DNA of 64,000 nt from Octopus vulgaris (lineage: Eukaryota): the NCBI GenBank assembly GCA_951406725.2, contig OX597820.1, positions 77,004,001 to 77,068,000 on the forward strand. The letters are read 5' to 3'. The position numbers were made by a program, and so were the translations under genes. How positions within the stretch are numbered: position 1 is the first letter of the stretch; each line of letters opens with the position of its first letter. The notes under the pieces are model-generated. The model saw only the letters and a program-made list of their open reading frames with translations, was not told the origin of the DNA and did no database searches. Shown here one piece after another: positions 5,051 through 63,510 of the stretch.

Positions 5051-5576
5051 TATAAGAAAATGAAGAAGAAATATAGTGGATACTTTATTAATTTTATTTG
5101 TAGTTGTATTATTTGTATTCGTATTAAGATGAAAAAATGTAATTCATATAAGATTTGAGATTTAAAGGAACAGCATCAACAAAAAACATTAAAAAAAACT
5201 CCTACATATGTTTCAATCCGACCAGTAAGTTCAGATCATCACCATTCGAATGATGTTAGATGTAAAATAACCCCACATTATTTCCGGATATCATTTTGAA
5301 AATACGGTCATTATCTTACTTATTTCGTTGCTCACCACCAGAATGTAAATCTCTTCTCTGCTGTTATCCTTACATAATGTAGGGTTTGCATCTAACATTG
5401 CTTGAATGGTGATGATCTGAACCTACAAGACGGATTGAAACATATGTAGGATTATTTTATGTTTATGTATTTCGTTGATTCTGTTCCTTTGAATCTGAAA
5501 TCTTATATGTTTTACTTTTGTTCATCGTAATAGTATTAACCAAGTATCCACTATATTTTTTCTCCTCTTTCCTATA
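5051..5576. mobile_element. Fold-back (inverted) Penelope-like pLTR pair with hammerhead-like motif in each arm
   Basis: Arms ~5051-5280 and ~5374-5576 are reverse complements. Each carries GTGATGA-stem-GAAACATATGTA. The right end abuts (TA)n. Confidence 0.7.
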
Positions 5577-6329
5577 TATATATATATATATATATATATA
5601 TATATATATATATATATATATAGATAGATAGATAGATAGATAGATAGATAGATAGATAGATAGATAGATAGATAGATAGATAGATAGATTGATAGATAGA
5701 TAGATAGATAGATACACACACACATATATGTATGTATGTGTCTATATTTGTGTGTATATATATATATATATATATATATATATACATGCTTATGAATTGT
5801 GTTGCAAGACTCGCTGATGTGAATATCTCTGTTGGAACAGAGATTTTGTTGTATTTCGGCATGGTCTTTTCATTTTCTGAAAAAGCACTCGCACAATACA
5901 TCTATTCTTCACACGTTTATTGCTATTCTTATTCTATGCCATGTATATTGTCCAGAAAGATTTCGTCACACGTCAGTGCCCTCTTCAAAGACACTTTTCG
6001 TTTTCGTGTCTGGCACTTGCTCCACTTACTCTATTCTGCTCTTCTATAGTATGTATCCTTGTGTCCGTGTTTTTGTGTGTGTGTGTTTGTGTGTGTGTGT
6101 GAGTGTGTGTGCGTGTTTGCGTCTACGTAAGTGTATGTGTTATTGTTCTTAATAACAATATGGCATTCCCCTCAGCCCTATCTTCTCACCCTGTTGTGCT
6201 GCTGCTGTCTTAGGAGCCAAAAGTTTGGTACAGTTCCTGTATCCCTCTGTGTTTGTGTGTTAGCCCACAGTATAACCATCGTGATAGTTGCTTTTGTTGT
6301 TATTGCCGTCGTTGTTACCGCCGCTGCTG

Positions 6330-7572
6330 CTGACGTTGTTAGTCGTATTGTTGATACTGTTGCGGCCGTCTGTGAAGTTATTTTGTGTTTGTTTGTGTAT
6401 TTATATGGGTTCACTTGTCATGTTGTTTGAATCCATGCCTCTTATATAGATTCATTCTTTTTTCATCAAACTCTGTTTCTTCTATTTATCACAATTGCAA
6501 ACGTACGGTTTTGGAAATACACATACAACACTTCATCCACCGCATTCAACTCTATGGCTACAATCAAAGTTACAGGATTAGAGTGTACAAAAGAGCCATG
6601 ACTAAGTACAAAGCCTTCATAGTAGTGATGCTAAGGGGATTTGCCCGATGTACAGGGATAAAGCCTGGAACAGCCCATAAAGGACAAGGAATAAGATAGA
6701 TAAAGCCAACTCTTGGCATGACAACAAAATATAGAGCGTCATTTTCATCAATGCAACTCCTGGAGGCAAACTAGCATACCTTTCTAGAAAAGCTTTAAGT
6801 AAGTCTAATCTACGGATTAAAGCAGTAGGGAGGTGTGGTGTTCCTATAAAATCCTTGATCTATAGACCATATCCCTTTGCTAAGTCGCTACTTACGGAGA
6901 ACAATTGTGTTCTATGTGGGATGAACCTACAGGTTGACTGTAAGGTTAGGAAAATAGTGTATAGAAACATGACAACTACCTACACTGCATGGGCTGCACG
7001 TAGTATAGGAGAGCGCATAGGTGCTTATTGGCGAGAGCTCAAAGACGAAAAAGGCTCGTCAGTGTTCTACCAAGATGGTCCATGCATATCATGGATACAC
7101 GATTAATAGCACACAGGTTAAAATATCGACTCATACAACTGACACGACACTAAGAAAAGATCACAGAGGCTGTACACGTAGCAGTAGATAGACCAAGCCT
7201 CAAACACGAATGGAACAATAATACCCACCACCATACCACACGACATGACTAAAGATAGAAGAGAGGTGAAGAGAGAGGAAAAATATAATAATAAATGAAA
7301 CACAGATACAAACAGGATAATACACACACGATAGACATAAATGCACGTTACATACAAAAAATAGCCTACGTTCCACATAAAAAAATACAGATAGATAAAT
7401 AAAAATAAATAAATGTATTTGTCACATATCTGTGATAAATATCAGAAACAGAGATAAATTTTTTTTAAATGAATCTCTTCAAAGGGCATGGATACAAACA
7501 ACATACCCATATACACACACAATAACTTCACAGACGGCCGCAACAGTATCACCAATACGACTAACAACGACA
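6330..7572 (+). mobile_element. Degraded Penelope-like retroelement (thumb/linker + GIY-YIG endonuclease) with inverted termini
   Basis: ORF 6385-6699 has IQLYGYNQSYRIRVYKRA. ORF 6855-7106 has CVLC..DCKVRKIVY..YTAWAARSIGERIGAY..LKDEKGSSVFY (Cys linker plus GIY-YIG pattern). 6330-6450 is inverted at 7475-7572. Confidence 0.8.
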
Positions 7573-7670
7573 ACGAAATACAACACACACACACACACAC
7601 ACACACACACACATATATATATATATATATATATATATATATATATATATATATATATATATATATAGGT

Positions 7671-9530
7671 CTGAGTATGTTGCCGTGCGTGTATTTGCGT
7701 GTGGATATATAACCAGAGGTAATCAGCATTGCCAGTAAACTCAATATGTTGAAACTTTCATTACGCGAAACTTTTGCCATGCTTTTTGATCAGCACATAT
7801 AAACTTATTCATATATATAGCTTACATTTTAAAGCTTGTGTCAACAGTTGAGTTTTCTAGCTTAGTTTGATGTCGGAAATTTTGAAGTTTATTTATCAAT
7901 AATTTACATTTTGTGTTTTCACAAATGTCGATACTAATGTTTCAGATTCTGTATTGCAATTTTCCACTCATATGAAGAACATGAATTATTGATCTCCGTA
8001 AGAGTTCTCTAATGAACAACGCTTTCTTATTTTTTTGCACTTTGTGTTCCGCGGAAAATGTCCATGCTAGACCTAACGCGGGGTTCCAGAACGATGAAAC
8101 TCACACCCAGTGGACGTTGGATGTGTGGATTCAATCAGAAGAACACACGTGGGCGATACTTGTGATATGGTAAAGTCATTAATGAAGCAGGGATTCTCTG
8201 GGAACTGAATGCGCTTTAACACAAATGTTTTATGTGATGGGAGAGTGTGGTAATACGAAAATAAAACAAAATCTTCTAAGCCCAATTTCTTGCTGGTATT
8301 GGCTTTGGTCTTATGCACAGTTTTGGTGCATCCAAAATTTGTGGCAACATAATGGAGGTTCATACTCTCACATTCGGTTTGTGAGGTTGGGAATATTTTG
8401 GTTCAAGAGATTTGCGAATTTGTTTTATCGCAAAGCTTAATGTCAGCTGCATTCTGAACATGAATTCATCGCTGAGATTGGGGTGGCATCTATTCTTACC
8501 TTGCCCATATTATCCAGCACAATATCATTTGGAAGTGTGAATGCAATGTTCAAGAACTCATAAGATCATTATTTCTAGAAACGTATGTGTCACTAGAGTA
8601 GGCTTTCTATTGAATTGCCGAGGTGTTCTGTTGATGTTTCGATATATTTATGATACACTGACTTACTAAACACATTGCCATTGTACAGCAAGCTATTACT
8701 CTCGACCTCAGAAAATGCTTAGAAACCAGGGTACTGAGATTAATTTAAGATGTGTAATTTTCGTGATAGTAGAAACAAATAACTCGATCTGATTTCCAAA
8801 TATAGGGTGTTTTGATGTCTTTCAGGTATATTATTTGCAAGGAATGAAAGTAGCCATTGTATGGTTCCACATATGATGTTAGTGTTACATCATATAGTTA
8901 AGAGTTGTGAAAGAGACCCTCCAATGCATATTGGTGACAATTGCATATCCATCATTTACACACAGGACTAGAGTTGTGCAATTTCGAGCCGGATCTGAAA
9001 ACGCAATTTAGAAGGTCTGTCAACTGTGAGCAATTTTGTCGGATTCTATTATTAGGCTTCATAGAATACTCTTTGCCAAAATATTTCTATCGATATGGTT
9101 TTCCTTTTCTACCGGAGGCATCAAGAAAATGTATTCTTCTCGTGTCAGAAGTACTCTGATACCTGTATAATTCGATTTCGTTTATGTATGACAAAGAGTG
9201 ATTCATATTGTCGGTCAGATTGTAACGTGAATGCTATAAGGGACCCTTGTCTAATAAAACATTGCTGATTGAAAATTGGAGTTGCATACTATACAGTGCA
9301 ATCCAACCCACACAAGATCCCTTGCATCTACAGCAAAATGTGGGCGTTAGTCCTTTCTTCTAGAGTTCTTCATACATTGTTTCTATCATAATACCATAGT
9401 GAATATTCTAAATTTGCGAACGTTCTTTCTCCTTTAACCGAGAGAATGGTAACACGACGTCTTTTAAAGGGCATTTTTCCAGTCTACATCGTGTTCCAAC
9501 AGCTATCGCTCTTCTCGCATGATTACCAGT
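7671..9530 (-). mobile_element. Degraded Helitron (RepHel PIF1-helicase region) with 3' terminus
   Basis: Minus-strand remnants: FLDASGRKGK (Walker A, cf. FLDAPGGTGKT) near 9100-9130, IMLPQILDAPKLC near 8315-8355, and FVLKRIQFP near 8200-8225. 3' hairpin CCGTGCG/CGTGTGG (7683-7704) followed by a CTCAG end at 7671. Confidence 0.85.
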
Positions 9531-62267: not shown

Positions 62268-62442
62268 ATATTAATTAGAGACAAAACCACTATTTTGCAA
62301 ATCAAACAAAGAAAGACTTAATCCAATACATAAAAAAATTTTAATATAAATTAAATAAATTTATATTAAAATTTTTTTATGTATTGGATTAAGTCTTGCT
62401 TTGTTTGATTTGCAAAATAGTGGTTTTGTCTCTAATTAATAT
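62268..62442. repeat. Near-perfect DNA palindrome, 85-bp arms, 5-nt loop
   Basis: 62268-62352 vs 62358-62442, one mismatch seen; part of a (TA)n-flanked element starting near 62176. Confidence 0.95.
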
Positions 62443-62530
62443 ATATATATATATATATATATATATATATATATATATATATATGTGTGTGTGTGTGTGT
62501 GTGTGTGTGTGTGTTTGTGTATATATATAT

Positions 62531-62700
62531 ATGCCATAGTGAAGACCTGACAGCTTTTATTGATTCATTAGATGTGCAGAGTAACATATATATATATATA
62601 TATATATATATATATATATATATACATATATATATATTACAAATTGTTACTCTGCACATCTAATGAATCAATAAAAACTGTCAGGTTTTCACTATGGCAT
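62531..62700. repeat. Inverted repeat, 56-bp arms around a (TA)n spacer
   Basis: 62531-62586 vs 62645-62700, two mismatches. Confidence 0.95.
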
Positions 62701-63468
62701 TCTTAGATATATGAGTGTCAGAATAAATAGAGAAGAGTCATTATAAATATTGAAGGGAATTTTTAATGAAATTGGCCATCTACGCATTCATGCTTGCGTT
62801 CTAGACAAGGTTATACCCGTCCCTTATCATCACTTATGAACTAGTTATGTTAAAAAATTGCGATGTGTAATGTAGGTACACACCAGGAAAAGTTTTACTC
62901 CTTGTAGCTAATATTGGTCGATGAGGAATACTCGTCCCAGCATGTGAGTTGCTGTGTATACACGCCACTGACGAAGAGTTAAATAGGCAGAAATTTATCT
63001 TTTGGTCTCCTTGGTGGTTATAGAACTCTTTGTTGTTGCAGCAGGTACATAACTCACATCAACTCACTATGAAAATAGCTGTAACTCACTTAATAACGGT
63101 GCATATATATAATCATATATTTATGTGTGTGTGTAATTATATATACACAAATTAACTTATATATATATATATATATATATATATATATATATATATATAT
63201 ATGTACGTATGTATGTATGTATGTATATCTTGATATATAAAACGGCGTGTGTGTGTGTGTGTGTGTGCAAGAGTGTGTGTTATTGTGCGCGTATATGTGC
63301 GTATGTGTGCGTGTGTTGTGTTTATGTGTAAACGCGTATATTCCTTATTGATTCGTAAATTGAATTGCCGATTTTGACGTACAAGGTATCAAAAGTTTCA
63401 GAAATATCTCGACTACAAAATAAAGAATGTTACAATCAGTTATAGCAGTGACTCGATCAATTCCTAGC

Positions 63469-63510
63469 GGTATCTGAAGAAGGAATTTTTATATTCTGAA
63501 ATATCATATC
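63469..63510 (+). ncRNA. Minimal type I hammerhead ribozyme motif, intact core
   Basis: GGTAT-CTGAAGA-A-GGAAT(TTTTAT)ATTCT-GAAA-TA-TC^ATATC: stem I, canonical core, stem II and palindromic ATAT helix III. Confidence 0.65.

Follow-up and report, generated by a model that had tools for sequence, protein, structure and literature searches.

Minimal hammerhead ribozymes (min-HHRs) are known from the pseudo-long terminal repeats (pLTRs) of metazoan Penelope-like elements (PLEs). They have type I topology, a short stem I, a CUGANGA core, one additional nucleotide following A9, a stem II of greater length, GAAA, and a helix III formed by a palindrome at 15.2-16.2 (PMC4209133). Many families coexist in one genome, mostly as solo truncated copies and partly as opposite-strand pairs 100-700 bp apart, and approximately 4,000 min-HHRs have been counted in the coelacanth and 9,000 in Xenopus (PMC4209133). 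PLEs are further known to target (TA)n (PMC8557442) and to form head-to-head inverted junctions carrying palindromes (PMC3846280). The hammerheads of animal retrozymes that lack long terminal repeats (non-LTR retrozymes) have a 2-bp helix III with a palindromic tetraloop and reach very high copy numbers, the axolotl genome containing 126,247 type I motifs (PMC7229834). In the double hammerheads of avocado sunblotch viroid (ASBVd) and newt satellite 2, and with the palindromic loops of Aedes repeats, a short helix III is completed by two paired palindromes (PMC6466107, PMC3088659). Here we describe type I hammerheads with palindromic helix III, four of them complete and several partial, in a 64,000-nucleotide stretch of the Octopus vulgaris genome (assembly GCA_951406725.2, contig OX597820.1, positions 77,004,001 to 77,068,000 of the forward strand; hereafter the window, whose own coordinates are used throughout). 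It is likely, with a probability of roughly 0.83, that these are decayed 3'-end fragments of several high-copy Penelope-like families and that their differing palindromes reflect lineage drift rather than a selected code.

A hammerhead was counted as complete when it combined the core, GAAA, a palindrome, UH and a stem I of at least 4 bp. Three such hammerheads lie among the seven sites (5204, 5440, 14950, 18972, 19136, 43746 and 63501) where the initial annotation had placed palindromes, all at correct coordinates. The motifs containing 18972 and 19136 are designated 18997 and 19211 (minus strand), and that containing 63501 is designated 63474 (plus strand). A fourth, which had been overlooked, lies at 55721 on the minus strand and carries the palindrome ACCTAGGT. 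The cores at 19211, 55721 and 63474 match CUGANGA...GAAA...UH exactly in type I order, and the core at 18997 is a U4C variant.

The hammerhead of family A (18967..19001, minus strand) is a minimal form consisting of a 4-bp stem I, CCGACGA, an extra A, a 4-bp stem II and GAA-ACGT-T. It lies within a high-copy repeat at 18870-19040 and is followed by a 99-nt 3' tail that runs to (TA)n. The hammerhead of family B (19129..19217, minus strand) has a complete core with a 6-bp stem I, CTGAAGA, a decayed stem II region of 58 nt and GAA-ACGATCGT-A. Its tail to (TA)n is 39 nt long, and the high-copy repeat around it spans approximately 19086-19345, with lower depth on to 19700. The complete hammerhead at 55654..55728 (minus strand) has a 7-bp stem I, CTGAAGA, a long stem II and GAA-ACCTAGGT-A. 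The complete minimal hammerhead at 63469..63510 (plus strand) has a 5-bp stem I with two G-T pairs, CTGAAGA, an extra A, a 5-bp stem II, GAA-ATAT-C and an 85-nt tail to (AC)n. An extra A before GAAA is found together with a G10.1-C11.1 pair at 18997 and 55721; the pair is G-T at 63474, and the base of the stem is unformed at 19211. The extra nucleotide after A9 and the G10.1 pair, present in three of the four complete motifs, match the published consensus.

The complete type I core is absent at 5204/5440, 43746 and 14950, which are fragments and not hammerhead members at present. The GAAA that had been reported before every palindrome is found at six of the seven sites (on the minus strand for 5204, 18972, 19136 and 43746) and is missing at 14950. 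The description of the sites as hammerhead relics holds for most of them, three being complete and three being partial arms of fold-backs, and fails for 14950, which scores as chance. With weak examples included, the earlier figure of about ten motifs, complete or partial, is reasonable (four complete motifs, four fold-back arms and two to four doubtful cases).

Hammerhead motifs are denser in the window than in shuffled sequence. The strict motif occurs three times against a shuffle mean of 0.035, and a core with one mismatch occurs five times against 0.65; neither count was reached in any of 200 shuffles, and one of the five, at 21860 on the minus strand, looks like a chance match. The pattern GAAAC-palindrome-GTH is found five times where 0.35 would be expected (0 of 300 shuffles as high). 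No enrichment is seen for the bare palindrome AC-palindrome-GT regardless of its surroundings (21 against 18.1, a count reached by 83 of 300 shuffles). A relaxed descriptor chosen post hoc so as to catch 14950 gives 2 against 1.6 (139 of 300 shuffles), which is the level of chance.

Very abundant repeats lie at about 19 kb. Contigs from four public runs were aligned to 18700-19700 at 80% likeness, which covers families A and B. Depth ranged from 0.8 to 3.9 million at 18972-19005 and from 0.27 to 1.6 million at 19108-19141, compared with 66, 46, 109 and 6 for contigs of single-copy flanks, so that the motifs stand far above the flanks in all four runs. Summed depth is not copy number, and the depth ratios give a rough estimate, suggesting on the order of 10^4-10^5 copies for each family. 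The very large genomic ribozyme load proposed in the initial annotation is thus borne out as an abundance of families A and B, as a load of motif-bearing repeats that does not imply ribozyme activity, and it falls inside the published range. The wider region 17600-20600 is partly present in 20 public runs, with at least half of its words in 5 of the 20. There was no RNA run among the runs listed for this region, which is uninformative on expression.

Families A and B appear to be separate, with a drop in depth from one to the other and a (TA)n tract at the end of each. We considered whether 18972 and 19136 belong to a single element with two ribozymes and rejected this, as the depth falls approximately tenfold between them and loose ends and (TA)n occur at 19075-19097. 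No piece bridging the two was present among the 32 listed of about 44,400, which is not proof of separation. Upstream, family B extends for 500 nt or more with reduced depth. The palindrome positions of the two families and the U4C position of family A are absent among the 40 listed of 118 difference rows, and the family A core CCGACGA (18991-18997, minus strand) has identical letters in the loose-end cells of two runs (19 and 18 records; agreement 0.98). The U4C variant may therefore be family-wide in the very high-copy family A. This substitution is reported to reduce activity in vitro, with viroid infectivity still possible (PMC3088659).

Four further partial motifs occur in two fold-back insertions. 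The first (5122..5532) is a head-to-head inverted fold-back, aligned to itself by BLAST at 74% identity, with two partial hammerhead arms that point outwards. The left arm (5203..5242, minus strand) has the core GTGATGA, in which C3 is lost, a remnant of stem II and GAA-ACATATGT-A. The right arm (5409..5448, plus strand) has GTGATGA and GAA-ACATATGT-A, and both arms are without stem I. This pair fits the opposite-strand min-HHR pairs of PLEs, for which a spacing of 100-700 bp has been published. The second (43671..43850) is a fold-back of a 3' end with 84% identity and no CUGANGA. Its arms are GAA-ACAGCTGT-A at 43746-43753 (minus strand) and GAA-ATAGCTGT-A at 43774-43781 (plus strand), and it fits the inverted junctions of PLEs, which are likewise head-to-head and carry a palindrome. 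As in the inverted pLTR junctions of endonuclease-containing (EN+) PLEs, head-to-head 5'-truncated copies, a palindrome at the junction and microsatellite targets are combined here (PMC3846280, PMC8557442). Its symmetry centre (43761-43765) falls exactly in the loop of stem II, as if a hairpin had primed the inverted copy; this is a single example, and the available text on EN+ PLE junctions makes no mention of a turn in loop II (PMC3846280, PMC8557442).

When a transcript of a parent element contains two copies in tandem, their palindromes would pair with each other and so make up a common helix III. The paired copies would also swap stem I strands, producing a double hammerhead with two active junctions that could cut the precursor. 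Such exchange of stem I strands is the established geometry of double hammerheads. Any palindrome starting at A15.1 would serve, and families would then drift among ACGU, AUAU, AGCU and longer forms; a preference for kin, if there is one, would arise incidentally from stem I and the palindrome together. In published models the dimers form in cis, with tandem repeats on a single transcript as the partners (PMC4209133, PMC6765202, PMC6466107), and kin identity would then be automatic. The published cleavage of dimeric min-HHRs was low (PMC4209133). ASBVd, newt satellite 2 and the Aedes repeats are replicating or tandem RNAs (PMC6466107, PMC3088659), whereas the copies in the window are solo or head-to-head and decayed DNA. 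Lacking a tandem partner, they are probably inactive.

The motifs are of a known kind, probably representing new families of minimal hammerheads of the Penelope type that are for the most part decayed. They share with the PLE min-HHRs the type I topology, CUGANGA with the extra nucleotide, GAAA, palindromic helix III and short stem I, as well as the variety of families, the prevalence of solo copies and the opposite-strand pairs (PMC4209133). They differ in that no link to reverse transcriptase or endonuclease is found, in the length of loop II, which at 40-58 nt in two of the motifs exceeds that of the published representatives, in the occurrence of four different AC-NNNN-GU 8-mers within 64 kb, and in the U4C core of family A (PMC4209133). 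A dinucleotide tract lies within 140 nt downstream of 6 of 10 motif arms, compared with 22% of 5000 random positions, the arms not being independent. The search for a coding link gave none, and a Penelope-like origin is probable from the architecture. The motifs probably belong to separate families.

Several results weigh against this interpretation. Searching with 88 endonuclease-like proteins by tblastn revealed no remnant of reverse transcriptase or endonuclease beside the flagged motifs, and Pfam found no family in the three minus-strand frames of 19214-20640, upstream of family B. The absence of reverse transcriptase and GIY-YIG beside the motifs would be expected of short, 5'-truncated copies. 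As monomers, 18997, 19211 and 63474 are predicted to adopt folds other than that of a hammerhead. Rfam gave no hits in the whole window at the gathering cut-off and no hammerhead in three short stretches at E <= 10. At the same threshold hammerheads are absent among the matches listed (150 of 308), all of which are of microsatellite type. Rfam models may miss minimal hammerhead forms. As regards drift, all six of the better families in the window have different palindromes, and mismatched 8-mers are predicted to pair worse than matched ones in each of 120 mismatched pairs, by 5.5-16.5 kcal/mol (median 10.9; energies of isolated duplexes). Furthermore, the counts of palindrome sharing come from other, published genomes and from metagenome clusters.

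The silence of Rfam would also be expected if the motifs were chance matches in AT-rich DNA. Chance does describe the bare palindromes and 14950, and a loose core-plus-GAAAC pattern run on 120 viral loci gave 0 structured and 4 palindromic matches, indicating that such patterns match easily by chance. However, the observed counts were not reached by any of the 200 or 300 shuffles, and depth peaks sit on both motifs examined, those of families A and B. As an account of the whole set this explanation is extremely improbable. It is refuted for the four complete motifs and stands for 14950 and 59135. It is improbable, too, that the motifs descend as solo copies from non-autonomous non-LTR retrozymes, which consist of short tandem repeats bearing canonical type I hammerheads, and not from the ends of autonomous PLEs. 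The missing coding link would fit such an origin, the 8-mer helix III corresponds to the 2-bp helix plus tetraloop of invertebrate retrozyme hammerheads (PMC7229834), and a 2026 preprint describes solo monomers distributed evenly along chromosomes and retrozymes of PLE origin (bioRxiv 10.64898/2026.07.22.740005). Against this, the window contains none of the tandem units of 170-400 bp typical of retrozymes (PMC7229834), and tertiary contacts between loops 1 and 2 are not evident, no formal test having been made. None of the 10 motif regions has a direct second copy in the window, the two fold-backs excepted; solo truncated copies lack tandem pLTRs by nature. PLEs are characterised by the extra nucleotide after A9, by a long stem II and by fold-backs and ends at microsatellites (PMC4209133, PMC8557442, PMC3846280), and the extent of family B upstream also argues against a retrozyme. 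The lack of tandem units in particular makes decayed PLE ends the more likely source.

The initial annotation proposed that, if cleavage needs dimer pairing, the palindrome would act as a family-specific self-recognition key. In a selected form of this idea, many coexisting, very high-copy Penelope-like families would have diversified their 8-nt palindromes, diverging in helix III so as to avoid cross-family dimers, and the palindrome and stem I would limit cleavage by double hammerheads to kin. We regard such selection as unlikely, and the key itself as having little likelihood. The predicted penalty for mismatched palindromes, which had been anticipated, and the six different palindromes of the better families are in its favour. 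So are the presence of four long 8-mers in 64 kb, more variety than in the mostly ACGU published set (PMC4209133), and the palindromes of families A and B, which are probably the majority letters of their families. However, the 8-mers all have the form AC...GT, leaving 16 options, and by simple arithmetic four of four would differ with a probability of 0.67. The A...T ends said to be kept by all the palindromes are indeed present, but the observation is circular since any palindrome that begins at A15.1 necessarily has T as its last letter.

Comparison with other genomes does not bear out the key. In the published PLE family alignment (56 family representatives, taken as machine-extracted text), families share a palindrome within one species in 8 of the 11 species with at least two families (Clonorchis, S. 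mansoni, Aedes, Ixodes, Lottia, S. purpuratus, Latimeria and Xenopus) and do not in Nematostella, A. vaga and Saccoglossus; the consensus within a family is often AYRU and not fixed (PMC4209133). We also examined the first 115 of approximately 29,000 metagenome stretches from other organisms that matched a pattern with forced GAAAC. ACGT is present in 33 of these, with about 7 expected by chance given that pattern. One of the 115 is structured if 8-mers are assumed, most real matches being 4-mers. Among 30 structured matches, with a stem II of at least 3 bp closed by G-C, ACGT is shared by 12 of 20 flank clusters, looser settings giving 11 of 19 and 7 of 14. The largest cluster has it in 7 of its 9 members. 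In addition, L149, a canonical type I hammerhead with a 6-bp stem I and a 4-bp stem II, has the palindrome ACAGCTGT found at 43746, and its flanks are unrelated. A family probably tends to keep its palindrome, yet the palindrome is neither unique to a family nor the sole determinant.

Stem I already separates the families, as it pairs over 4-7 bp with itself and over 0-3 bp with the others among the four complete motifs, and it is also exchanged in the double hammerhead. Its predicted self energies are weak at 18997 (+0.6 kcal/mol) and 63474 (-0.7 kcal/mol). The need for a dimer is itself not given, since an AC-NNNN-GU 8-mer can fold into a helix III of 2 bp capped by a tetraloop, for which the predicted energy is +2.0 to +2.4 kcal/mol alone. 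This is a form of invertebrate hammerheads, most of which cleave efficiently (PMC7229834). The formation of dimers in cis in published models likewise argues against a selected key (PMC6765202, PMC6466107). No paper on heterodimer cleavage tests was found in a literature collection that omits most subscription journals. Given the predicted cost of mismatched palindromes, incidental kin preference is plausible. A family code would be speculation, and the available counts do not favour it.

As drifted, decayed PLE ends, the motifs place one more animal among those whose genomes are heavily loaded with hammerhead relics of the known Penelope type. A selected code, if true, would mean that retroelement families distinguish self from non-self at the RNA level, and it would supply mutually orthogonal ribozyme pairs; the natural panel of 8-mer palindromes makes it cheap to test.

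A probable decayed relic, identified by eye and left out of the shuffle counts, is found at 55863..55932 on the minus strand. It consists of CTGACGA, a stem II of approximately 14 bp and AAA-ACCTATGT-A; G12 is lost and the palindrome is imperfect. On the minus strand of 55654-55932 there are thus two distinct hammerhead bodies 200 nt apart, with the relic upstream, whose palindromes ACCTAGGT and ACCTATGT differ by one letter; they are possibly a natural tandem pair. A doubtful relic at 59135..59159 (plus strand) has CTGAGGA, a short stem and GAA-ACGT-T without stem I. The other doubtful relic (14950..14992, minus strand) has a near-core CTGATAA and a 9-bp bulged hairpin beside ACGGCCGT, with no GAAA on either strand, the palindrome being preceded by CAAA on the plus strand and TTA on the minus strand. 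A plus-strand hammerhead at 14950 was ruled out because the upstream core is absent, and GAAAATAGCTGTA at 63070 was ruled out because no core lies within workable distance. In the region 62943-63080, nested inverted repeats accompany CTGACGA (62968) and GAAAATAGCTGTA (near 63070); the region resembles the 43746 palindrome and has no hammerhead fold.

A decayed Penelope-type element is present at 6331-7572, with a GIY-YIG-like coding remnant (6627-7213, plus strand) and a CxC..C linker. From this decayed GIY-YIG region it follows that Penelope-type elements exist in this genome. The remnant has 88 relatives by phmmer, with a sub-cutoff GIY-YIG match in 1 of 11 of those checked, and 11-27% of the members of its Atlas neighbours have GIY-YIG. 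It accounts for the matches obtained by tblastn with the 88 proteins, apart from one weak place at 34023. Pfam found no family in two frames near 6.4-7.1 kb, and a word-index protein search with 6735-7103 gave no match. The 3' end of the element is repeated as an inverted copy (6331-6493 and 7431-7572, 73%), and no hammerhead was recognised in it.

The window has 34% G+C and many microsatellites. Other short fold-backs with arms 76-97% identical lie beside microsatellites at 26684-26833, 50275-50443, 62272-62438 and 62532-62699, and contain no hammerhead motif. A dispersed family resembling short interspersed elements, often in tandem, is found in many copies at 1246-1440, 9655-9870, 23224-23868, 27509-28326, 29497-29672, 46725-46903, 52546-52756 and 59651-60475; like the base composition, it has a cephalopod-like appearance. 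Broken transposase-like frames occur at 33933-35023, 45790-46122, 47175-47945 and 53086-53592, which resemble mariner/Tc1 transposases, and terminal inverted repeats pair 33809-33847 with 35064-35102.

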